Positions 2,459 to 63,279 of a stretch of 64,000 nt of DNA are shown here, piece by piece (within the stretch, counting starts at the first letter, position 1; every line of letters begins with the position of its first letter). This DNA comes from a virus (lineage: Duplodnaviria > Caudoviricetes): IMG/VR virus record IMGVR_UViG_3300043021_000113; one strand, 5' to 3'. Under the pieces are notes generated by a model. That model did no database searches. It was not told the DNA's origin and was given only the letters and a program-made list of their open reading frames with translations. Made by a program: the position numbers and the translations under genes.

Positions 2459-4305
2459 AAATTAGCGTTTATTTGAGATAAAACGATAATTTCAAGTTCT
2501 TTTTTTAAATCATTTCCTATATCATCTTTTGGTAAATAACACCAATCATCATTTCCAATTTTTCTAAAATTAGATTTATTAGTAATTTTTCTATTATCTA
2601 TTATATCTATTATTTCATCATATAATTTCTGTACATTTTCAGTTGGTTTACGTATATTATCTGAAACATAGAATCCATCGTCACTATAATCAACACAAAA
2701 TACTTGATGGTTAGTTGTTACTGTTTCTCCTACTGTAAATACAAATATAGATGTATTAACAGCTGCACTTGGTTGAAATAAATTATCAGCAACTTTAATT
2801 ATCATATCAAGTCTATTATTCTTTAATATTTCATTTCTAAGTTCACTAACAATTTTATTATCATTAAGACCACAACTCATAGGTACAATTGCTGCCATTT
2901 TAGCTCCTTTTGGAAGATATTTTATAGTTTCAATAACAAAAGACCATTCATGCATTTTCTTGTTTTTAGTTCCTTTCATCATTGAATATGGAGGATTTAA
3001 AATGCCAGCTGTAGGTTGAGTTTTTTTTATCTTATCTCCTACTTCGTAACAATCACCATATATTAAATTATCAGTAGAAATATTATTAAACGAAAAATTT
3101 GCAAATGCTAAAAAATACATATGTTGTAATAATTCAACTGCAATATAACCTTCTTGTAATTTTTCTTCATCTTCTTTTGTTTGACATAAACTTTTTTTAC
3201 GATTAAAAGTTTCTACAGGAAAAGCTCCAGTACCAGTACAAAGATCAAGAATAACATCTTGTGCATTATTTACTACTATATGATTCATTAATCTTGTTAT
3301 ATGATAAGGAGTTAAAACTACTCCACAATCTTTACCATCAGATTTAGTATATCTTAAAAATTCATTATATAAAATACTTGATATATCAATTTTTTTGTCT
3401 TTATATTTATTTTCTAATGGAATTAATATTTCATGTAAAATAAAAGAACAAATAAATTTAGGTAAACTCATTGTATCAATTCCAGTTTCTGAATAATTAC
3501 TCATATATTGTTTATAAGGAACAGTAGCTGAATTATTAATTGATAAACGAGATTGATCAAATCTTGATATTGAACGTTTCACATTTTCTTGAACTTCTAT
3601 TTTATGATAAGCAATTGTTTGTATTATTGCATTATATATATAACGTGAAAAATCAATATCTTTAATTTTTCTATTAACAAGATTGTTTCTGAAATCAATA
3701 CATTGTATTGACATTATACAAGCAGTCAATAAATCTATTTTATCAGATGCTGCAATGCCTGCATGATTTCTTACTCCTTCATGTAATATTCCAATTTTAG
3801 ATTTAATTTCTAACTCTACTATATGATGAATACTATTATTTTTATTAACTTTAGTTTTATTAATTATAACATCTAATGCATAATTTAAATAATCAAGTAT
3901 AGAGTCATTAGTATTTTTCTTATCTATATATTGTATTTCTTCTTCTTCGTCTAAATAAAAACAAGCTATTTCTATTTCTGTTTTACTTAAACCAAAAACA
4001 TTAACACCAAATGGTTTAATTCCAGTTTTTAAAGTTTCTAACATATAATCTTTAAGTTGAGCTTTAGCTAAAGATTTTGTTTTATTGTCATTATCAACTT
4101 TTACTTCAGCTATTAACTGCATAGGCATTTCATCAGATTTAAGACAAACATCAGATATAGAATCTGGACGTTTACCTTTTAAATTTGAAACTTGGCGAGT
4201 ATATCTATTGCCGTTTTCTTGTTTAGCTAATTTTTCCCAAGTATTAATTATTTTAAAGAAATTATCTTCAACTTGAGATTCATTAAATTTATTAATTTTT
4301 GCCAT
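2455..4305 (-). CDS. fused endonuclease / N6-adenine methyltransferase (BcgI-like Type IIB/IIG)
   Basis: N-terminal PD...AEVK; GVVLTPYHIT; motif I ILDLCTGTGAF; motif IV NPPY; IVPMS; adjacent S genes. Confidence 0.85.
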   Translation of the reverse strand: MAKINKFNESQVEDNFFKIINTWEKLAKQENGNRYTRQVSNLKGKRPDSISDVCLKSDEMPMQLIAEVKVDNDNKTKSLAKAQLKDYMLETLKTGIKPFGVNVFGLSKTEIEIACFYLDEEEEIQYIDKKNTNDSILDYLNYALDVIINKTKVNKNNSIHHIVELEIKSKIGILHEGVRNHAGIAASDKIDLLTACIMSIQCIDFRNNLVNRKIKDIDFSRYIYNAIIQTIAYHKIEVQENVKRSISRFDQSRLSINNSATVPYKQYMSNYSETGIDTMSLPKFICSFILHEILIPLENKYKDKKIDISSILYNEFLRYTKSDGKDCGVVLTPYHITRLMNHIVVNNAQDVILDLCTGTGAFPVETFNRKKSLCQTKEDEEKLQEGYIAVELLQHMYFLAFANFSFNNISTDNLIYGDCYEVGDKIKKTQPTAGILNPPYSMMKGTKNKKMHEWSFVIETIKYLPKGAKMAAIVPMSCGLNDNKIVSELRNEILKNNRLDMIIKVADNLFQPSAAVNTSIFVFTVGETVTTNHQVFCVDYSDDGFYVSDNIRKPTENVQKLYDEIIDIIDNRKITNKSNFRKIGNDDWCYLPKDDIGNDLKKELEIIVLSQINANL

Positions 4306-8506: not shown

Positions 8507-10766
8507 TCATAAATTCAAATCATCAAAATTCCAATTATCATCGTTTATATCATCAATTCTTGTTTCTTTATTATAACTCCATTCTAAAGTATTTTCATAT
8601 CCGTTGGCTTGATGCCAAGCAACACGCTTTATAAGCTCTAAAAATTCATGCCATCCTAAAATTAATTGATCATTTTTAACATTATAAAGCTTGGATCTTT
8701 TCAATCCTATTGTTTCAACAACAAGCATATTCGCTGTTCCAGAAAATCCTTCTCCATAAGTTTTTTTAATGTATTCTCTTAATAAAAAATAATAACTCTA
8801 TTATGTTCACATACAGTCGCTAATTGTATGCCGGTTTTTATAAAAACCTGCTGTATGTTACCATACAGTCCAGACTATATCATGATCTTCAGCATTATCT
8901 GTTAAGATCCCCTCCATTTCCACTCGCTTGAGTGTACTCTACTCACTTCCAGATTTTTTCTGTGTTTTCGATAGTCGTTGAGCACAAATTTAAATTATGG
9001 TAAATTTTATAAATTTGATTTTTAAAATCATTTATATTATAATCAATTTTCATATAATTGCACATAGGACAACATGACACACAATTTCCAGGTATATATC
9101 CTTTATTTGGATTTATTCTATCAATTCCATTGGTAGGTAAAGCTTCTTCTTTAAATCTTGTTTTAACCCAATCTCTCATTTGTGGTTTATTACCACAATA
9201 ATAGCAATTTCCATTAATGAGATTTTTTACTTCTTCTTTTGATAGTTTAAATTCAATTTCTCCACGTCTTTTTTCTGCTATAATTTTTTTACTATAATCA
9301 TTATAAAATCTAGTATAAAAATCTCCAGCTTTTATGCCTTTTTTCCCTGTACATTTATTACATCCGTCGCCTTTAATATTTAAAATTTGGGCTTTATACT
9401 TCATATGAATATCACCACATTTTTTACATTGAACAACGAATTTTGTATGATTTTTTAATCTTTTACAATCTATAACTTTATAGGCTTTATTTTCATATCC
9501 TACAAATTTTTTTGCTTTTTTTGGTTTTTCTTGCTTAGTTCTTGTTACAACAAGTTTTTTTAAACATCCAGTACAAGATGTTTGCTTGTATTTTTTAATT
9601 TCACCCATACTTTTTACAAATTCTTTACCGCAATAAATGCATTTACATTTATAAGCTGTACTATGGGGTCTTTTTTCTCTTTCTATTTCTAAAACCTCAA
9701 AACAATTAATAATTTTTCCAATATATTGGCTTATAGATTTATTAACTTTCTCCATAATTTAAATTCTTCGCTTATGATTATCTGCAAATATAATAAAATT
9801 TTTTGTAACATTTAAATATTTGCACATTTCCCATAAATTAGAAGGGTTATTCGTGTGTTATTTCTAACACAAGGGCCGTTATTTTTCAGCCATTTGTCTT
9901 GAATAATGAAACTTACTCCAAGAACCGGGCTTTTGAACTATTTTTTCTTCTATTGGATCATATTCTGAAAAACCCATAAAATTTTCAACTGGCGAACCGC
10001 TGGTTTTAAGATCGTTTAGACAAAAAACTTTGTTTTCTTTATTTATCCATCCATGATCAAGTTTCATCTTAAAACCCACAATTTCTGTTATCTTTTCTCC
10101 TTCCAAATTGCCTAAATCCTTTGGAAATGTAATTTTAAAATCTGCTAAAATAGCCATTTCAAATAAACTTCCTTTATGGTTTATTTGATCCATTATTTCT
10201 TTATTTTCTTTTAAATTTTTAATGCAATTAATAGCTCTAATTCTTAGATCACTAGGTAATATTATTTCTTCAATTTCTCTTTTTGGCTTAATAATTGCTT
10301 TGTAATAAGCTAAACTTTCTCTTATTTTGTCCTTTATAAATCCTGGAATTCCTAAAGAACCATTAGATAAAATTCTATTTAAATAATAATCAGCACGAGA
10401 ACAAGCCAAAACTATTGATTCTTCAATAGTTTTACCTTTACTTCTATATTCTTTGAAAGCTTCAACTGCTAAATAAAATTTACCTGTTGGAGCTTCAATT
10501 TCTGATAATTTAAACTCGTTCGGCTGCAATAATGCTTGGTGAATTGCACTTCCGAGCGATAAAGCAACACTATTTGAAGGTTTGAATCCTTCGAAAAATT
10601 TTGTTGGAGAACCACCTTGAGCTGGATTTAATAATCCAAGCTTTGAATTACTAACATATCTTGCATATTTAGAACTAAAATAAACTTCATCTGGTATATC
10701 TAACATTTGCAGACTGTCTGAAATAAGTTCTATTTTAAAATGTTTTAATATTTCGTTAATTTCCAT
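8507..10766 (-). CDS. PD-(D/E)xK exonuclease, spliced (exons 10766-9888 and 8797-8507)
   Basis: GSAIH...KMKLD...LNDLKT; the join restores HYSRQMA|SYYFLL. Confidence 0.8.
8798..9887 (-). mobile_element. group I intron 1 carrying an HNH homing endonuclease
   Basis: 5' exon ends in U with P1 GGCU/GGCC; P10 AAUAAC/GUUAUU; core UCAACGACUA and GAUAUAGUC; terminal G; frame restored. Confidence 0.85.
8943..9755 (-). CDS. intron-encoded HNH homing endonuclease
   Basis: CYYCG...NGIDRINPNKGY...NCVSCCPMCN; Cys-rich N-terminal repeats. Confidence 0.85.
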   Translation of the reverse strand: MEKVNKSISQYIGKIINCFEVLEIEREKRPHSTAYKCKCIYCGKEFVKSMGEIKKYKQTSCTGCLKKLVVTRTKQEKPKKAKKFVGYENKAYKVIDCKRLKNHTKFVVQCKKCGDIHMKYKAQILNIKGDGCNKCTGKKGIKAGDFYTRFYNDYSKKIIAEKRRGEIEFKLSKEEVKNLINGNCYYCGNKPQMRDWVKTRFKEEALPTNGIDRINPNKGYIPGNCVSCCPMCNYMKIDYNINDFKNQIYKIYHNLNLCSTTIENTEKIWK

Positions 10767-12499: not shown

Positions 12500-13216
12500 T
12501 TATAGTTCAAAATCCATGTCAATGTCTGATTCTGCAATTGGAGCTGTAGTTTCTGGATCTTCAATTGATAATGAATCAGAGTCTAAATTTGGCATGGTTG
12601 TTGGTTTTGCTGCTTGTTGAACAGCAATTGTTACCATTTCTTTATCAGTAAATTTCAATCCTTGTCCAATAAAATTGCTTCTCATAAAGCAAGAACCGGA
12701 TTTTGTATATCCAACAGGAAAACTTGGAAAAGATGCATAACCCTTGTTATTTGCTACTAGTTTAATTTGAGTTTTTGTATCAATTGCACTATTTACAATT
12801 TGTGCGATATATTTTGCATATTGTATAAAAACAGAATCTTTGCTTTTCGCAGGTGTAAATGGAGCTATTTTTCCAGTCTCCATATCTTTTACTAATTGAG
12901 GATTTACGCCAACCATTAAATGTTTAACGAACATTTGGAAACATTCAAATTTTGACGGATTTTTACCACCAAAGCTGTTAGCTTGTGGTTCCATATCTTT
13001 TGGATTGTTTACATCAAAGCCGAATTCTTTATGTTCAAAGCTTTTCCCATCTTCACTTTCAAATTTAACAACTAAAGCTTCGTAAGTCTCCGTTTTCTTT
13101 GCTTCTGCACCCTTAAATAGTACATCATGAATTTTGTTTTTCTCAAGATAATTACCGCCATTGCCGCTATTTACTGAATAGTTATTACCTGTTAAATTGA
13201 AATTAAAATTTGCCAT
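12500..13216 (-). CDS. probable single-stranded DNA-binding protein
   Basis: position in the replication block; acidic C-tail ESDIDMDFEL. Confidence 0.55.
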   Translation of the reverse strand: MANFNFNLTGNNYSVNSGNGGNYLEKNKIHDVLFKGAEAKKTETYEALVVKFESEDGKSFEHKEFGFDVNNPKDMEPQANSFGGKNPSKFECFQMFVKHLMVGVNPQLVKDMETGKIAPFTPAKSKDSVFIQYAKYIAQIVNSAIDTKTQIKLVANNKGYASFPSFPVGYTKSGSCFMRSNFIGQGLKFTDKEMVTIAVQQAAKPTTMPNLDSDSLSIEDPETTAPIAESDIDMDFEL

Positions 13217-13291: not shown

Positions 13292-13819
13292 TTATAAATC
13301 TAAATTGAAATCAAAAGTTATTATTTCTTCTTCTTCTTTTTTATCTAAAGCTTCCGTTAAATTTTCTGTTTCTTCAACGTCTGCTTCAGTAAGCATTTTT
13401 ACATCAGAATTTCCAATTAATTTGTAAATCATCTTTTCGTGTAATTCAAGCTTGAATTCGTCACCATATATTTTTAACGCTTCAGCTTGTTTGCCTCTAT
13501 AACTAATGGTAAGTTTTTTCGTTAATTTATTACCATTGAGGCTTTGTCCCATGTTTTGTTCTGTTCCTATAACTGGAACGAAAACATCGTTAATTTGAAT
13601 GTATTGCACGCAAATCTTATCGCCTACTTTTGCGCCTATAAGATCTACGGCAGCTTGGTTTAACTCTAAAGAGTTATTGACTAACTTGACGAAAGCTGTT
13701 GAAGGATCACTTGTTTTTTCTACTTTAGGAATAATTCCATTTATTACTTCAAACTTCTTTGTTGTACTTATTAGCACTCCATTTTCGTCAAAAATTTCAG
13801 TTGTTACTATTTGATACAT
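13292..13819 (-). CDS. hypothetical replication-block protein
   Basis: 175 aa ORF with an acidic tail. Confidence 0.55.
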   Translation of the reverse strand: MYQIVTTEIFDENGVLISTTKKFEVINGIIPKVEKTSDPSTAFVKLVNNSLELNQAAVDLIGAKVGDKICVQYIQINDVFVPVIGTEQNMGQSLNGNKLTKKLTISYRGKQAEALKIYGDEFKLELHEKMIYKLIGNSDVKMLTEADVEETENLTEALDKKEEEEIITFDFNLDL

Positions 13820-44792: not shown

Positions 44793-46391
44793 TTATGATT
44801 CTATATTTATAATTTCATCATTAAGTTTACAATTGATAATTTTTATGTCTTTTGAACTAGAAGCACCAGGTATAAATGTATAATATACATTTTCTCCAAC
44901 AACTGTAAAACATTTTATCATTTCACAATTTACAAATTCACTTCCAGGATTTGCTGTATGAACAAAACCTCCTATATCATTACTACTACTCATGCTACTT
45001 TTAAGTCCCATGCTTTTATCAAATGATATATTATAACATTTTGTATTAGCACCTAAATATCCAGCAAAAAATCCCACATATCGCTGAGCTGTTATTTTAG
45101 AAGAACTACTCTTTGGACTTATTGTTATATTAGAATAACTACAATTATTACCTCCATATCCAATTACACTACCAAAATAATGACCATAAGTAGAATATAA
45201 CTTAAGATCTCCATTAATATTTATATTATTAATTGTAGTATTATTATCTACATATCCAGCAACTATTCCAACATAATAATCAACTTCACCTTTTGTAAGA
45301 TCCAAACTAACATTAGAAAATGTAATATTACTAATTACTCCATTATTAACATTTCCAAAAAAACCCATATAGTTTTTTATTCCCATATAGTTTGTTGCTT
45401 TAAGATTGTTAATAGTATATTTTTGACCATCAAAAGTTCCTTCAAATGGATTATCTACATTACCAATTGGTGTCCAAATTCCTAATTCAATATCAGCTAT
45501 TAATTTAATAACTTTTCCTTTATAACTATTCCCATTATTTACTTCATCACGAAAAGCTTTTAATTCTTCTAAATTTGAAATTTCAAGATCAGCTTTTGCT
45601 TCAATATCACTGGTAAGCTTGTTCCATTCTTTAGAAAGAATAATATTAAATGTTGGATTTGTTCCGCTAAAATCATCAACCCATATTTCAGTAGTTGTGT
45701 TTGGAAGAACTTTTACAGTTTTAACAAATACTTTATTATTAGCAGTAACTTTTACTGTTGCACTTGTTATTGATGAATCAATAAAACCAAATGCTTCAGC
45801 AACTATACTTGATCCTGGAGTATATGTTTTTTTAATATATAATGGATTTTCTTTATCAATAACAACTTTTCCAGTTGAAACATCAAATTTTGTTCCTAAA
45901 CCTTCAATTTCAATTTCTGCTGATTCTGCAACTTTATCAACACCTTGTGATAAAACTTGAATTTTAGCATAAGGTCTTGTTAAAGGAACATCAACAGGAG
46001 CCATTATTTCTGAAACACTAATTGGTGTTGATGCATAAAAAGAATCTTCATTGTCTAAATCTGTAGTATATGTTCCATCAAATTTTGATTTATCACCACC
46101 ACCAGATAACCAAAAATTAAAAGTGTAATCTTGACCAATTACTACTGTTTCATTTATTGTAGCACTATTACCTGAAACTGTAGCATCTTTTACTTCTTTT
46201 GTTTCTTGATTAAAACAATAAAACAACTTGCTTGTATCATTTGCTTTAGTTCCTAAATGGCTAGCATCAAAAGATACATTAAAACTGACTGTTCTTGTTT
46301 CTCCAGTTTCTATTACCTCTTCACTATCTTTAGCACATGAAAACATGGCTAAAGAAGCCATGCTCATTGCTATTAAATTTTTAAGTTTCAT
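44793..46391 (-). CDS. lipoprotein: fimbrial-like N-domain plus GLUG/beta-helix C-domain (paralogue 3)
   Basis: lipobox MFSC; DSFYAS...LTRPYAKI; ELKAFRD.VN.G.SY.GK.IKL..DI; FDGQKYTINNL. Confidence 0.75.
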   Translation of the reverse strand: MKLKNLIAMSMASLAMFSCAKDSEEVIETGETRTVSFNVSFDASHLGTKANDTSKLFYCFNQETKEVKDATVSGNSATINETVVIGQDYTFNFWLSGGGDKSKFDGTYTTDLDNEDSFYASTPISVSEIMAPVDVPLTRPYAKIQVLSQGVDKVAESAEIEIEGLGTKFDVSTGKVVIDKENPLYIKKTYTPGSSIVAEAFGFIDSSITSATVKVTANNKVFVKTVKVLPNTTTEIWVDDFSGTNPTFNIILSKEWNKLTSDIEAKADLEISNLEELKAFRDEVNNGNSYKGKVIKLIADIELGIWTPIGNVDNPFEGTFDGQKYTINNLKATNYMGIKNYMGFFGNVNNGVISNITFSNVSLDLTKGEVDYYVGIVAGYVDNNTTINNININGDLKLYSTYGHYFGSVIGYGGNNCSYSNITISPKSSSSKITAQRYVGFFAGYLGANTKCYNISFDKSMGLKSSMSSSNDIGGFVHTANPGSEFVNCEMIKCFTVVGENVYYTFIPGASSSKDIKIINCKLNDEIINIES

Positions 46392-46407
46392 AATTTAAAA
46401 GATTAAT

Positions 46408-48000
46408 TTATTCAATAATAACATTTCCACTACCATTATAAAATGTCCCAATATCATTAATTGTTACCGGATTATTATTAATTTTACAATTAGTAATAGT
46501 TGTAGTTGTATTTCCCCATTTTTCTATTCTACCAGAAAAAGAACCAACTTCTCTTGTATTATTATTTGAATTTATTTTAATATTGTTTAATTCACAATTA
46601 GAAAATACACCATTAGCTATACCACATGTTAAACCACCAATACGTCCATTTATACTTTCTAATTGAATATTATTAATACTTACACTATTACAAATTATAT
46701 CAGTATTTAAATATCCAGCAAAACCGCCAACAGCATCATCGGTAACTTTTATTAAAGAGTTATCATTGGCTTCTAATTTTATATTCATATATTCAGAATT
46801 TCCAGTTTCACTTCCAATAATTCCACCAGCATATCTATTAGCAGTAATATTAATTAAACCTTTAACAGTTATATTTTGATATTTATTTTCTCTAGATTCA
46901 GCAGAAACAACAGAAACAATTTGATTTCCTATTATAGTTGCATTTTCAAATGTAACATTTTTAATTTCTCCTGAAGAAACATAACCAAAAAATCCAACAC
47001 AACTTTCATTTTCTTTATTAATATTTAAATTTTTAATAGTGTAATTTTGACCATCAAATATTCCAGAAAATGGATTATGATTAGAATAATTACCAATTGG
47101 CTCCCAATTTTCATCTGTTAAATCGATATTAGATGTTAATTTGATAGTTTTTCCAGAATAACTTTCACCAGAATTTACGGCATCTCTAAAAGCTTTTAAT
47201 TCACTTAAATTTGAAATTTCAAGATCTGTTGATTCATAATAAATAGTGTCCCATTCTTTAGAATAACTAATAGTAATTATTGGACTTATAGAATCAAAAT
47301 TATTAACAGTTAAAACAGTATTTGTATTTTCAATAACATCAACTATTTTTGTAATAGTTTTATTATTAATAGTTACTCTTACAACTGCATTTTTTACTGT
47401 CTCATCAACAAAACCAAAAGCTTCAGCAATGAAATTTTCTTTAGGTGTACAATCTTTTGTTATTGTTCCAGTTGCTTTAACTTTTCCTGTTGTAATATCA
47501 AAAGCAACACCCAATCTTTCAATCTCAATTTTTGCTGATTCTGCAACAGTGAGACCATCTTTTGATAAGACTTGAATTTTAGCATAAGGTCTTTTTAAAA
47601 TAATTTTTTTATCAGTTGATTTAGTAACAGTGAATGTTTCTGATGCATAAAATGAATCTTCATGATTTAAATCAGTAACAAAAGTTTCATGAAATGCATC
47701 TTTATTTCCATTACCTGATAACCAAAAATTAAAAGTATAATCTTGACCTATCGTTACGCTTTCACTTATTAAAATATTATCTCCTGAAACATCTTTTGAT
47801 TTTACACCACTACCAAATGAATAAAACAATTTAGCTGTTCCATCTGTTTTAGTTTTTATTTGGTTTGAATCAAAAGACAAATTAAAACTAACTACTGCTT
47901 CTTCTCCATTTTCAACTTCATTTACTACTTCCTCATTTTTACTACATGAAGTTATAGTCAAAGCTGCTAATCCAGTGATTATTAAATTTTTAAAATTCAT
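46408..48000 (-). CDS. lipoprotein: fimbrial-like N-domain plus GLUG/beta-helix C-domain (paralogue 2)
   Basis: lipobox ITSC; same motifs. Confidence 0.75.
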   Translation of the reverse strand: MNFKNLIITGLAALTITSCSKNEEVVNEVENGEEAVVSFNLSFDSNQIKTKTDGTAKLFYSFGSGVKSKDVSGDNILISESVTIGQDYTFNFWLSGNGNKDAFHETFVTDLNHEDSFYASETFTVTKSTDKKIILKRPYAKIQVLSKDGLTVAESAKIEIERLGVAFDITTGKVKATGTITKDCTPKENFIAEAFGFVDETVKNAVVRVTINNKTITKIVDVIENTNTVLTVNNFDSISPIITISYSKEWDTIYYESTDLEISNLSELKAFRDAVNSGESYSGKTIKLTSNIDLTDENWEPIGNYSNHNPFSGIFDGQNYTIKNLNINKENESCVGFFGYVSSGEIKNVTFENATIIGNQIVSVVSAESRENKYQNITVKGLINITANRYAGGIIGSETGNSEYMNIKLEANDNSLIKVTDDAVGGFAGYLNTDIICNSVSINNIQLESINGRIGGLTCGIANGVFSNCELNNIKINSNNNTREVGSFSGRIEKWGNTTTTITNCKINNNPVTINDIGTFYNGSGNVIIE

Positions 48001-48056
48001 AATAGAAAATAAAATTAAACCTGGCAGTGTTTAGCTGCCAGGTTTGGGTTAATTTA

Positions 48057-49769
48057 TTAGTTGTTATTAATGATAAGTTGACCAAGACCTATGTTTTTGT
48101 CTTCATTTACTGTTTCATAAGCAGCACCAAGATCATTTATTTCTACTGGTTTACCATCAATTGTACATCTAGTAAGAGTTACTTTGTAACCTGTTGCATT
48201 ATGCCATGTACCAGAAAATGCTGCTACATCTGAATCTCCATCATAAGTACCATTTGTTTTTACTCTTTTAGCAGTTACATCAACAGTTTTACAGTCTACA
48301 TAATTAGTGCCATAATGAGCAATACCAACAAATCCACCAATATTACGAGTTGAACCAACAACGTCCAAACCTTGAATTAAAATATTAGTCATTGTTAAAC
48401 TATTACTTGAACTTTCACCCATGAATCCAGCGAAACCTCCTACATAAGTTCTATAATCTGTCGTACCATCAAAAGAATTTGCATATACTTTAGAACCTGT
48501 TTCAGCGATTAGTTCAATATTTTCGCAATTTGCATAAACATTCTTACCAAATACACCTCCAACATAAGCGAAACCTTCTACGTTAATTGTACCTTTTACA
48601 GTTATATTTTCATATGTAGAAGTATAAGGACAACCAGCAACAACACCAACATTCAAACGACCTTTAACAGTTGCGTTATTAAAGTTTAGGTTTTTAACTG
48701 ATCCATTCTGAGTATAACCAAAGAAACCAGCATTACTTCTATCTGCAATTTCTACTTTATTTGTTAAATTAATATTTAAATTGCTAATAGTGAAACCTTG
48801 ACCATCAAAGTTGCCTTCAAATTTGTTTGTAGCATTACCAATTGGTTCCCATACTTTATTTTCAAGATCAATATTAGTCATCAATCTTACAGTTCTACCT
48901 TTGTAGCTATCTACACCAGTATTTACTGCATTACGGAAAGCTTCAAGTTCAGCACGATCACGAATGCTCAATTCACCTTTTACTTCATCAGTTTTTGAAC
49001 CTGCCCAATCTGCATAACTTACACTAATAGTTGGAGTTCCACCCATTCCATCGAAACTATCAACAGTTAAAGTGGTAATCATGTTTTGCTGAACTGCAAC
49101 TGTTTTCTTTAAAGTTGCACCTTTAAATGTAACTTCAACTTTTACTGAATCTTCATCTTTATTTGCAAAACCAATAATAGAACCTAAACTTGTAGATTCT
49201 TTAAGGGTAGAATTTGCACTAAGTGGAGTTTCAGATTTTGTCATTTCTCCTGTTGTAACATTGAATTTATCACCTAAACCATCAACTGTAATTGTTGAAT
49301 TTCCCGTAAGCTTACTTGTTGATACAACAACAATTTTAGCATATGGTCTTACAAGTGTAGTTGATATAGTTTGACCCTGAGCTTTGAATTCTTCTGATCC
49401 ATAGAATGAATCTTCATTTTTAAGATCAGAAATTATTTCACCATTTGTAAATGGATTTTCAATTCCAGCTCCTGAATGCCAAAAATTAAACTTATATGTA
49501 TTGCCATTTGTTAATTCTTCAGAAATAAGAGTACTTGAAGCTGGTTTTTGTTCGTCATATGTAAAACCATTATTTTCATTTTGTTCACCTATAACATACC
49601 AAAGCTTAGTTCCTCCAGCTTTTGTCATCATTTGGCTGTCATCAAGAGTTACATTAAAGTTAACCATTGATCTTCCATCAGTAGTTCCGCAGAACTCTTC
49701 ATTGTCATTTACACATGCGGTTAGTGCAAGGGCACCTAAGCCCATAATCGCAAAATTCTTTAGTTTCAT
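48057..49769 (-). CDS. lipoprotein: fimbrial-like N-domain plus GLUG/beta-helix C-domain (paralogue 1)
   Basis: lipobox LTAC; same motifs. Confidence 0.75.
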   Translation of the reverse strand: MKLKNFAIMGLGALALTACVNDNEEFCGTTDGRSMVNFNVTLDDSQMMTKAGGTKLWYVIGEQNENNGFTYDEQKPASSTLISEELTNGNTYKFNFWHSGAGIENPFTNGEIISDLKNEDSFYGSEEFKAQGQTISTTLVRPYAKIVVVSTSKLTGNSTITVDGLGDKFNVTTGEMTKSETPLSANSTLKESTSLGSIIGFANKDEDSVKVEVTFKGATLKKTVAVQQNMITTLTVDSFDGMGGTPTISVSYADWAGSKTDEVKGELSIRDRAELEAFRNAVNTGVDSYKGRTVRLMTNIDLENKVWEPIGNATNKFEGNFDGQGFTISNLNINLTNKVEIADRSNAGFFGYTQNGSVKNLNFNNATVKGRLNVGVVAGCPYTSTYENITVKGTINVEGFAYVGGVFGKNVYANCENIELIAETGSKVYANSFDGTTDYRTYVGGFAGFMGESSSNSLTMTNILIQGLDVVGSTRNIGGFVGIAHYGTNYVDCKTVDVTAKRVKTNGTYDGDSDVAAFSGTWHNATGYKVTLTRCTIDGKPVEINDLGAAYETVNEDKNIGLGQLIINNN

Positions 49770-55289: not shown

Positions 55290-57198
55290 TCGGTTGAGGG
55301 AATTGAACCCTTCAATGGCAAACCTGCGCAACCGATAAATTGCTGACTTTCACAAGCAAGCAATCCCGCAATTACAAATCATATTAATTCAAAATTATGA
55401 AAACCTTTGTAGCTCTCTAGGAATCGAACCTAGAACTACCCACCAGGAAGCTTGAAACCTAATTTCACAATTAAGTTTGCACTAAAACCAATAAAAATAC
55501 TTAACTTCATGAAAACAAACAATACGTGTGACTTTCCGGGAATTGAACCCGGAATTACCCAAACCAGGAAGTCGCAGCTCTAACTTCACAGCCAAAACTG
55601 ATAAAATCTAACTATTTAACTATTTACCATTTTAAAAAATTATCAAAATGAAAAAAATCACAGAAAATGTGCGGCTCTCTGAGAATTGAACTCAGAATTA
55701 CCCAAAAAACCAGGAAGCCACAAACCCAGTTTCACAACTGAATTTGTAAATAAAAAATCACACAAAAAATATATAAAAAATATTATGTGAGGCTTGCTGG
55801 GAATCGAACCCAGGATCAATCTAACCGTAGACAAGCCGAGAATAAACCTAACTTCACAGTCCAGCTATTCTAAGTGAAAAAAACAAAAATTATGATATAC
55901 AAATGTTGAGGCTTTCCAAGAATTGAACTTGGAATTATCCATACCAGGAAGCCAAATTTTAAAGACGCCGAATTTCACAACCCAGCGTCTTTGTGTAGTG
56001 TGTCTAATTTTTAATGAACTATTGTTTTGTTATTATTAAAGTAAATGTACAAAGATGAAGTGGACTTCTAGGAATTGAACCTAAAATTACCTAAACCAAG
56101 AGTCCATATTTAAAAGAGCCTAATTTCACAATCAAGCTCTTTTTCTTAGCATGTTTTACTAATTCTCTATATTATGAACAAAGTACAATTCTATTCGTGG
56201 CCCGCTGGGAATTGAACCCAGCATTACCTAAACCAAGAGGCCTCAAGCCTAGCTTCACAGTCAAGCTTGTTGTAACAACTTAAATTTTCAAAAAAACATG
56301 ATTATATTATGAGTATGGCGGCCTTTTAGGAATCGAACCTAATTTTAATCCAATAAGGCCAATAAATCTCCAAATTTCACAACTTAGAGATTCAAAAATT
56401 ATTATCAACTAATTCAAAACTATTATTTATAAAAAGCGTGACTACAAATGTAGTGGTCTTTTAGGAATCGAACCTAAATTACGCTAACCTGCAAGACCAA
56501 CCCTTAATTTCACAATTAAAGGGTAACAATAAACTAAAAATAAATATATATGGAAAATCAAACTCTGTGGCTTTTAAGGACTCGAACCTTTATGCACGCC
56601 AAAACACATGTAAAGCCAGTTGTGTTTTTCATGGTTATCAAGTACGATATTATGTGAATATATGTGAATAATACTGCGATATTATAAAAAGAACTGCCGA
56701 ACTTCACAGCCCAGCAGTTCGCGCTTTAATCATATTAATTTAATATAAAAATACATTTCAAAAAGAAACTTTATGCGTGCGGCTTTCGAGGACTTGAACC
56801 TCAATGTATGCCTTTATACATAGAAAGCCAAATAATCTAATTTCACAATTAAATTATTTTTTACCCAACACTAAAAAATTAACATGATATGAAAAACGTT
56901 GAGGCTTCTAAGGATTCGAACCTTAATAGCGCCTAACCGCGAAGCCCAAAATTCCTAATCTCACGATCGAGAATTTAAATTTCAAATAACAAATCTTCAG
57001 GTTATGAAAAAATCATAAGTGCCTGCCTGGGAGTCGAACCCAGGAGTGGGATTTTGTAGACTTTAGTTGTGTATAATCAATTACTATTACCTGTTGAAAC
57101 AAGTGATTTTAACTACATTTAATTTTAATTTTATTGTTAAAAGAAATTTATTGTTTATTTTAAAAAAATAAACAAACCCACTGTCTTCCTTGCCAGGC
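55290..57198 (-). ncRNA. array of 14 anticodon-less tRNA-like elements with GUGA-tetraloop hairpins and unique spacers
   Basis: units at 55290, 55411, 55530, 55673, 55791, 55910, 56062, 56199, 56320, 56455, 56569, 56781, 56903 and 57021; T-loop GTTCRANTC; compensatory stem changes; G-U pairs only on the minus strand. Confidence 0.85.
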
Positions 57199-57344
57199 TC
57201 TGAACCTTAACGCTTTAAGAGTTCAGTTGTTCAAAAGAACTGTAACGCTTTACATGAACCTTGAACTAATAAAAAAAATTCGCCAAATTTTCCGTGATTA
57301 CTCGAAGCACGGACTAAGTGATCATGAAAAAAAGGATCTGACCA

Positions 57345-62700: not shown

Positions 62701-63236
62701 CACGAATTAAAGTAAAAAGAGTGTAAGCCGCACATAATATCAGCACGGCTTTAGTGAACTTGTCAAGCTTCATGATTAATACTGTTTAACTCGTCATATA
62801 AAACTTTTAACTTTCTATCTATTTTGTCAAGTTCTATCTCAACTGGCCAACAGTAAAACTCAAGTTCTTCAGAGTCTTTGTAAGACTCTTGGAGATCTTG
62901 AATTTCTTCGATAAGCTCTTTGCGGACTTTATATAAAACATCCATTTCATCTTTTATCTTTTTTGCGTTCATGATTAAATGTTATTATTATTGAACCATT
63001 CTGGACGTTCTCTTAATATATCATACAGCTCATCGTAATTCTCCGAATACCAAGCTTTAGATATATTCGCATTCTCTTCTTCTCTCTTCTTATAAGAAGA
63101 AGAATCTTTGGCTTTATCTCCTAAAGCTGTTTTTAAATCAGCCATTACAGCTAAATTATTATTTATTACCATTTGAGCTGCAAAACCCAAAAGCTTTTCG
63201 TACTTTGTCTTCATTATTTATTTTTTTTTAATTCGC

Positions 63237-63279
63237 GCCCTAAGAAAGAATCGAACTTTCTTTAACTCCAAAGTAAGGC
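63237..63279 (-). ncRNA. solo anticodon-less tRNA-like element
   Basis: GCCTTA-CT-TTGG-AG-TTAA-AGAAAG-TTCGATT-CTTTCT-TAGGGC. Confidence 0.7.

Follow-up and report, generated by a model that had tools for sequence, protein, structure and literature searches.

A gene-free array of anticodon-less mini-tRNAs and FopS/GibS-like RNA modules in a Caudoviricetes virus

The 64,000-nucleotide stretch of viral DNA analysed here (Duplodnaviria; Caudoviricetes; IMG/VR record IMGVR_UViG_3300043021_000113), which is called the window throughout, carries a gene-free array of 1.8 kb on its minus strand (55290-57061) that consists of 14 tRNA-like elements, 13 spacers and 13 hairpins with a GUGA loop. The mini-tRNAs of the array copy the elbow of tRNA plus the 3´ context of the tRNA genes of the host group, and the spacers are built like FopS and GibS, small RNAs (sRNAs) of Bacteroides. 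We propose, with a little under even confidence, that the array is a multi-sRNA operon of a crAss-like Bacteroidota phage, the transcript of which is cut at the mini-tRNAs into sRNAs that target start codons.

Results

Mini-tRNAs in a gene-free array

A regular-expression scan of the whole window for T-stems around a TTCRANT loop located 14 perfect or near-perfect 5-bp stems on the minus strand between 55312 and 57043 and a fifteenth at 63260; the remainder of the window yields scattered chance matches with 4 of 5 pairs. Thirteen of the 14 array elements fold alone into an acceptor stem of 5–6 bp, a D-like segment and a T-arm, and measure 42–50 nt. All 13 lack the anticodon arm and have GG in the D-like segment. 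An earlier note on this DNA, made from the letters alone, had counted 14 mini-tRNAs and given the length of 13 of them as 41–49 nt, which is right within 1–2 nt; its count holds for the T-arm elements, of which the first (57020-57061) is degenerate, with a good T-arm, a weak acceptor, no GG D-segment and no hairpin in front. The elements were scored with a mini-tRNA model (R1), as follows.

57020-57061 (minus strand): element 1, degenerate; R1 14.4 bits, E = 0.65
56902-56946 (minus strand): mini-tRNA 2 (6+5 bp); R1 49.2 bits
56780-56829 (minus strand): mini-tRNA 3, longer D-hairpin; R1 39.2 bits
56568-56617 (minus strand): mini-tRNA 4, no adjacent hairpin, ACCAUGAAAAACAC in front; R1 43.0 bits
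56454-56498 (minus strand): mini-tRNA 5; R1 49.7 bits
56319-56360 (minus strand): mini-tRNA 6, sole encoded GCCA end; R1 48.0 bits
56198-56242 (minus strand): mini-tRNA 7 (5+6 bp); R1 54.1 bits
56061-56105 (minus strand): mini-tRNA 8; R1 55.9 bits
55909-55953 (minus strand): mini-tRNA 9; R1 56.3 bits
55790-55837 (minus strand): mini-tRNA 10; R1 45.3 bits
55672-55719 (minus strand): mini-tRNA 11; R1 54.4 bits
55529-55573 (minus strand): mini-tRNA 12, the example given in the earlier note; R1 59.1 bits
55410-55452 (minus strand): mini-tRNA 13; R1 49.4 bits
55290-55334 (minus strand): mini-tRNA 14 (6+4 bp), last unit; R1 34.4 bits
63236-63279 (minus strand): solitary mini-tRNA of the array family; R1 34.9 bits, E = 4.5e-6

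Across 14 good copies, 92.8% of the cells in the mini-tRNA stems are paired, with 30 double-sided changes versus 8.4 in shuffles, and the pairing falls to 61–62% once the partners are slid by one column. This covariation, like that of the hairpins described below, is among copies within one genome. The T-loop frame G/TTC.A.T/C is invariant and GG is present in every D-like segment of the 14 aligned copies; mean column identity is 64%, and the acceptor-stem sequences vary freely between elements. The acceptor and T stems, which are separated by 12–20 nt, stack to 11 bp, or to 12 bp with a flanking pair, which matches the canonical tRNA elbow. The pair N-1:N73, which would give the 12 bp, could form in 8 of 13 units and was set aside as not above chance. 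The acceptor and T-arm parts that are kept are those read by RNase P, RNase Z and the CCA-adding enzyme.

Standard tRNA calls are absent, as had been anticipated: ARAGORN returned no tRNA and no tmRNA on the stretch, and an Rfam scan found nothing at the gathering score; for canonical tRNA (RF00005), the best score is 16.6 bits against a gathering score of 29. The array is also free of genes, as claimed earlier. No credible open reading frame (ORF) is found on either strand, and the largest internal frame, a 58-aa TTG frame spanning two units, is the sole one of at least 50 aa inside the array. Micro-ORFs on the plus strand that start from the mirrored ATGAAAA were rejected; their peptides of 4–35 aa have no common features.

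The 3´ flank of the elements is also that of tRNA genes. C stands right after the discriminator in 13 of the 14 elements, although C makes up 10.7% of the spacer bases, and the second base after the discriminator is A in eight; the earlier statement that most elements end in N-C is therefore sound, as is that of an encoded GCCA in the unit at 56320 (mini-tRNA 6). N73-C74 is found in each of the 30 distinct tRNA genes that were recovered from Bacteroides sp. KFT8; four encode the full CCA, and those without it continue with A or T after C74. Other Bacteroidales loci have N73-C74 in 7 of 7 tRNA genes, so that C74 is encoded by 37 of the 37 Bacteroidales tRNA genes examined and the full CCA by only four. 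These genes suggest that the Bacteroidales tRNA 3´-end pathway may leave or need C74. Of the indirect evidence for an action of tRNA maturation enzymes on the array, the N73-C74 flank common to the mini-tRNAs and the Bacteroides tRNA genes is the strongest.

The solitary copy (63236-63279) sits in a 5´ untranslated region (UTR) and has no GUGA hairpin; a strong terminator precedes it by about 45 nt, and the ORF behind it starts 21 nt further on (63214).

GUGA hairpins and the transcribed strand

The GUGA hairpins of the array have stems of 8–13 bp, and 12 of them end 0–7 nt before a mini-tRNA:

56949-56976 (minus strand): GUGA hairpin 1
56830-56859 (minus strand): GUGA hairpin 2
56499-56524 (minus strand): GUGA hairpin 3
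56363-56394 (minus strand): GUGA hairpin 4
56244-56269 (minus strand): GUGA hairpin 5
56112-56143 (minus strand): GUGA hairpin 6
55961-55992 (minus strand): GUGA hairpin 7
55845-55866 (minus strand): GUGA hairpin 8
55720-55747 (minus strand): GUGA hairpin 9
55575-55600 (minus strand): GUGA hairpin 10
55455-55478 (minus strand): GUGA hairpin 11 (unit 13)
55337-55366 (minus strand): GUGA hairpin 12

The thirteenth hairpin belongs to the sole intrinsic terminator in the array:

56689-56722 (minus strand): 13-bp GUGA hairpin followed by UUUUU, 71 nt before the next mini-tRNA

The pairing of 13 elements with GUGA hairpins that the earlier note described thus holds for 12, the thirteenth being this terminator. 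In the hairpin stems, 94.4% of the cells are paired, with 36 double changes versus 10.5 in shuffles, and the sequence is constrained at several positions: the pair next to the loop is U-A, pair 4 is R-U, pair 6 is U-G in 11 of 13 hairpins, and pair 7 is C-G. The covariation is strong for both folds, in agreement with the claim that the stems differ while pairing is kept, and the combined pattern of hairpin and T-loop matches eight times versus none in 100 shuffles. Many of the hairpin G-U pairs would turn into A-C mismatches if the plus strand were transcribed, which indicates that the RNA is read from the minus strand, as the G-U pairs had been taken to show. The minus strand also carries every gene in the window.

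No terminator lies between the array and the next ORF (start 55235). Sigma-70-type promoter matches number 16 versus 13.0 expected in shuffles, which supports no promoter per unit, and the Bacteroides TAnnTTTG box is only sporadic and does not recur between units; the expected promoter position between units is occupied by the covarying mini-tRNA itself. Given the lack of a recurring unit promoter, the single terminator and the absence of any boundary towards the downstream gene, the simplest reading is one or two long transcripts.

Directly after the stop of the upstream gene, a further stretch (57283-57335, minus strand) has a U-run and CAUG motif followed by a different hairpin (UCCGUG...CACGGA), and may be a 'unit 0' without GUGA loop or mini-tRNA.

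Spacers built like FopS and GibS

In GibS and the 14 paralogues of FopS, a single-stranded 5´ seed pairs across start codons and blocks translation, for example of SusC transporters (PMC7366714; PMC11697453). Judged by this type of seed (UUUUUCAUAG, single-stranded), seven of the 13 spacers have a U-run and CAU motif in strict form 5–15 nt past the spacer start, two have it in looser form and four are without it. The seeds are of low complexity and are unpaired in folds of whole units, which consist of an open region, then the hairpin and then the mini-tRNA, so that the order seed, hairpin, mini-tRNA is constant. TTTTTCATA with at most one mismatch occurs eight times on the minus strand in ~2 kb at the array versus about 39 times in the rest of the window, so that the motif is enriched on the transcribed strand of the array. 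The seed is the complement of aaattATGaaa, the context of the starts in the window. The sequence after CAUA differs in every unit, and thus each RNA could address a different 5´ UTR; the spacers, called unique in the earlier note, are so in this part and share a FopS/GibS-like build.

Two types of model searches were made. In a permissive Rfam scan below threshold, which also provided the mascRNA and tmRNA matches given below, the Bacteroides sRNAs BTnc231 and GibS were among the best matches; they align from model position 1 and run through the common GUUUUUCAUA start and the GUGA hairpin. A covariance model built from seven bacterial FopS-like genes only (R2; search space 128 kb) has its four best matches all inside the array, on the minus strand and at full length (E = 0.0016, 0.0034, 0.0069 and 0.11), and the terminator at 56689-56722 closes the best of them (56692-56754). 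The modules and seeds are the following.

56112-56182 (minus strand): spacer 7 module, UUUGUUCAUA seed and GUGA hairpin; BTnc231 25.2 bits, E = 0.023; R2 24.7 bits, E = 0.0034
55337-55403 (minus strand): spacer 13 module, UUUUCAUA seed and GUGA hairpin; GibS 21.8 bits; R2 23.3 bits, E = 0.0069
56888-56896 (minus strand): spacer 2, exact UUUUUCAUA seed
57003-57012 (minus strand): strict seed
56549-56557 (minus strand): strict seed
55647-55657 (minus strand): strict seed
55508-55519 (minus strand): strict seed

Three features are seen in the bacterial FopS-like genes that were fetched: a TTTG..TAnnTTTG promoter (sigma-ABfr), which is absent between the array units, a terminator hairpin, and an invariant 5´ GUGUUUUUCAUAGUAUUAGAUU, part of whose invariance was imposed by the pattern used to find the genes. 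In the Muribaculaceae type, the UU-GUGA-AA top of the hairpin is identical to that of the phage hairpins. The resemblance of the spacers to a known sRNA class provides a plausible job for the products of cutting.

FopS copies also occur in phages (BX-TP2 and gut phage contigs) with an ordinary promoter and terminator and no mini-tRNA. The copy at the end of the Bacteroides phage BX-TP2 record (930-1040) is a complete gene with host-type promoter and terminator at the edge of an induced prophage record, and may be flanking host DNA or a carried copy.

Within the array, ACCAUGAAAAACAC lies at 56618-56640 (minus strand), 4 nt before mini-tRNA 4, where it opens a 24-codon frame running through that element; the plus strand at 56622-56676 reads GUGUUUUUCAUGG, which is almost the invariant FopS 5´ end. 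The site resembles a start region that host FopS or the array seeds could possibly bind, as a sponge or self-target.

Genome context, own-genome pairing and relatives

The window has ~27% G+C and encodes replication genes, ribonucleotide reductase (RNR) and many small unknown ORFs. None of its 107 ORFs has a Shine-Dalgarno sequence. Starts of this context without a Shine-Dalgarno sequence have been described for Bacteroidota (PMC7366714), and the window genes thus fit a Bacteroidota host. The closest phage protein match is the RNR of Bacteroides phage BS-TP1 (43.5% identical). Three tandem paralogues of 530–570 aa (44793-49769, minus strand) match only PHROG 30905, of unknown function, and one has a weak GLUG motif.

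At start codons in the window, spacer 7 has the longest exact antisense match (14 nt, ORF 25164), followed by spacer 9 (13 nt, ORF 60076; extended by blastn to 18 nt with one mismatch); in AT-rich DNA, chance alone is expected to give matches of such length. Two pairs are outliers in duplex energy, spacer 6 with ORF 62584 (-24.6 kcal/mol) and spacer 2 with ORF 54221 (-22.5 kcal/mol), and spacer 1 with ORF 27025 is also among the best own-genome pairs.

A blastn search of the array region against phages gave no match, and neither flanking protein has relatives in viral contigs. The 213-aa neighbour protein has no homologue but itself among 5.8 billion proteins; the neighbour gene occurs in run SRR11794475, and the Logan contig that carries it ends 36 nt upstream of the gene and therefore holds none of the array. 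In viral and metagenome contigs, a pattern of hairpin, T-loop and T-loop picked up nothing but ordinary tRNA arrays or duplicated tRNAs. Bacteroides phage BS-TP1 has no R1 match, and an IMG/VR contig with a primase 37% identical (3300001199_000005) gives only weak R1 matches and normal tRNAs.

Related mini-tRNAs occur outside arrays. Viral contig IMGVR_UViG_3300029267_002779 (L120) carries three on the plus strand (10672-10717, 13033-13077 and 13325-13370), which have nearly the same acceptor stem (GCCTA/TAGGC), are followed by A-C-T and each directly precede a same-strand ORF. Eight gut viral contigs of 67–126 kb (L128, L131, L138, L170, L180, L181, L182 and L187) share an identical 42-nt mini-tRNA (6+5 bp) ~20 nt before an ORF start, and related solitary copies are present in the viral contigs L123, L118 and L139. 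Solitary mini-tRNAs before ORFs, here and in other viral contigs, indicate that the element also works in mRNA contexts. Separately, a 239-kb phage contig (L077) has two neighbouring tRNAs (3240-3560, minus strand) with the same insertion of ~55 nt in the anticodon region, which looks intron-like.

Discussion

The DNA itself establishes the two folds, the strand, a 3´ flank of the tRNA-gene type and spacers with a FopS-like build; co-transcription, both cuts and the targets are the parts of the favoured model that we infer. According to this model, the array would be transcribed on the minus strand together with the neighbour genes, and each mini-tRNA would offer its acceptor/T-arm elbow and its host-type N73-C74 flank to the tRNA maturation enzymes of the host. 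RNase P would cut at the 5´ end of the mini-tRNA, 0–7 nt downstream of the GUGA hairpin, so that the RNA in front is closed by a protective hairpin, much as at a terminator-derived end. The tRNA 3´ pathway would cut after N73/C74 and leave the next seed near the new 5´ end. The released pieces of ~70–110 nt are predicted to have an open 5´ segment, usually with a U-run and CAU seed and unit-specific flanks, and a stable 3´ hairpin. They would act like FopS and GibS by pairing across the Shine-Dalgarno-less starts (..AUUAUGAAAA..) of host or phage mRNAs and blocking initiation, and the silenced host mRNAs might include those of SusC-type outer-membrane transporters, which are nutrient gates or phage receptors. 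That host RNase P and the tRNA 3´-end pathway cut the transcript at 13 mini-tRNAs, so that a dozen FopS-like RNAs silence host mRNAs or phage early genes, is a possibility that we advance tentatively. The processing signals suggested in the earlier note are thus partly supported, by the tRNA-type flank, the kept elbow parts, the lack of unit promoters and the single terminator.

Several results weigh against this interpretation. No match to FopS (RF04319) was obtained at E ≤ 10, and GibS and BTnc231 reach 21.8 of 115 bits and 25.2 of 80.4 bits, respectively; four spacers (3, 5, 8 and 10) have no CAU seed. Pairing of the seeds with start regions of the window itself is only modestly above background, and taken together the best pairs lack significance, with outliers for two of the 13 spacers. 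The internal terminator (56689-56722) would break a continuous transcript in two, and in 9 of 12 units only 0–2 nt separate the hairpin from the acceptor stem, so that RNase P would find hardly any unpaired leader. Searches of viral, metagenome and phage collections gave no orthologous array.

The close apposition of hairpin and acceptor stem, which may hinder RNase P, also favours another view, in which each unit is an sRNA gene of its own, the mini-tRNA stays on as a 3´ module and at most one cut is made per unit. The mini-tRNA might then be CCA-tagged, shield the end from exonucleases or recruit tRNA-binding proteins, much as plant viral RNAs are stabilised by tRNA-like 3´ ends. The constant order of seed, hairpin and mini-tRNA agrees with such units, and the conserved C-A after the discriminator could equally be the pyrimidine-purine start site of the next one. 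However, neither a sigma-70 nor a TAnnTTTG promoter recurs upstream of the seeds, where the covarying mini-tRNA takes up the position, whereas each bacterial FopS gene has a clear TTTG..TAnnTTTG promoter; we therefore regard this view as unlikely. The mini-tRNAs could instead be the products, serving as decoys or sponges for proteins that bind the elbow or the acceptor end (defence nucleases, nucleotidyl-transferase toxins, the CCA enzyme or RNase P), with the spacers as mere linkers. The number of copies (14) would suit a dosage effect, other phages have related solitary mini-tRNAs but no FopS-like modules with them, and the host-type C74 flank suggests tRNA-like maturation. The best-known tRNA-cutting defence nucleases attack the anticodon loop, which the mini-tRNAs lack and hence cannot mimic, and the freely varying acceptor stems offer no specific identity. 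Decoys also leave the U-G at hairpin pair 6 and the FopS-like seeds unexplained, and fit poorly with the strict one-to-one pairing of mini-tRNAs and sRNA modules. The decoy function for tRNA-targeting nucleases considered in the earlier note finds no direct support, and we consider decoys less likely again.

The copy in the 5´ UTR at 63236-63279 and the three copies directly before ORFs in L120 agree with a role in cis, in which the elements punctuate the surrounding early mRNAs by stabilising or separating cistrons and the array is an expanded gene-less stretch that yields no trans-acting RNA. Thirteen signals without genes between them would have nothing to punctuate, and the spacers hold a conserved, covarying hairpin and a seed motif of their own, which makes this account improbable. 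Lastly, the elements could be decaying tRNA genes or attachment-site fragments without function, and tRNA arrays and fragments are common in phages (PMC9897764). The same clean loss of the anticodon arm in thirteen independent copies, the compensatory changes and the retained GG and T-loop render decay very improbable.

Literature searches brought up no account of phage elements or arrays of this kind. The tandem union of mini-tRNAs with FopS-like modules was not found elsewhere, and both parts resemble known kinds. If the cut-transcript model is true, the array would be, as judged from these searches, the first natural bacterial or phage case of tRNA-shaped punctuation that mass-produces regulatory sRNAs. 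It would join two subjects that have been little studied, the anticodon-less mini-tRNAs of phages and the start-codon-blocking FopS/GibS RNAs that control nutrient uptake in gut Bacteroides. The crAss-like phages, which are the most abundant viruses of the gut, would gain a concrete, testable route to reprogram host translation through a programmable, multiplexed shut-off borrowed from the regulatory code of the host. For multiplexed RNA expression in Bacteroidota, the array would also be a compact scaffold of natural origin. C74 that is rarely followed by the full CCA, in Bacteroides tRNA genes and in the phage elements, is a simple handle on which enzyme may act on these elements.

Comparison with known systems

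The alternation of repeats and spacers had been likened to CRISPR. The analogy holds for the layout; CRISPR repeats are near-identical, whereas the array repeats have only structure in common, sharing shape and not sequence. General scans of some window proteins gave no Cas match, and no exhaustive cas screen of the window was made.

Most array units have a putative 5´ seed, open in the folds and followed by a hairpin, that resembles the single-stranded seed of FopS (RF04319) and GibS (RF04182) with UUUUUCAUA, the complement of a AUGAAAAA start, and, like the FopS family with its 14 paralogues in B. thetaiotaomicron, the units are multicopy. They differ in having no promoter of their own, in lacking a U-tract terminator in 12 of 13 units and in standing in tandem with mini-tRNAs between them. 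In addition, the sequence after CAUA is unit-specific in the array, whereas a 5´ end of ~22 nt is invariant in the fetched bacterial genes, in part because the search imposed it.

The mini-tRNAs resemble the tRNA-like domain of tmRNA (RF00023) in the acceptor stem, the T-arm, the reduced D-loop and the missing anticodon arm, and the 3´ end of tmRNA gives matches below threshold in Rfam. Unlike tmRNA, the elements have no mRNA-like part or pseudoknots, and position 3:70 is C-G in 11 of 14 rather than the G-U alanine identity pair of tmRNA.

The release of neighbour RNAs by tRNA-processing enzymes has eukaryotic precedents. In MALAT1-mascRNA (RF01684), a cellular tRNA-like element is the signal by which these enzymes free the neighbour RNA; mascRNA is among the matches below threshold (17.4 and 16.5 bits). 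The TMER genes of murine gammaherpesvirus 68 join a tRNA-like element to hairpins, and tRNA-processing enzymes free the neighbour RNA (PMC4337559); in the TMERs, the tRNA-like element comes first and the hairpins after, and the transcripts are made by Pol III and give rise to microRNAs. Plant mitochondrial t-elements and organelle tRNA punctuation use non-decoding tRNA-like structures to mark ends made by RNase P and RNase Z (PMC1920247). The array elements, which are known from sequence folds, share with t-elements a non-decoding acceptor/T-arm fold at putative transcript borders; t-elements flank organelle mRNAs, whereas the phage elements separate small non-coding modules. Engineered polycistronic tRNA-guide RNA arrays free many short RNAs from one transcript by means of flanking tRNAs. 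Those arrays are man-made and use full tRNAs; the phage array would be a natural, minimal version if the proposed model holds.

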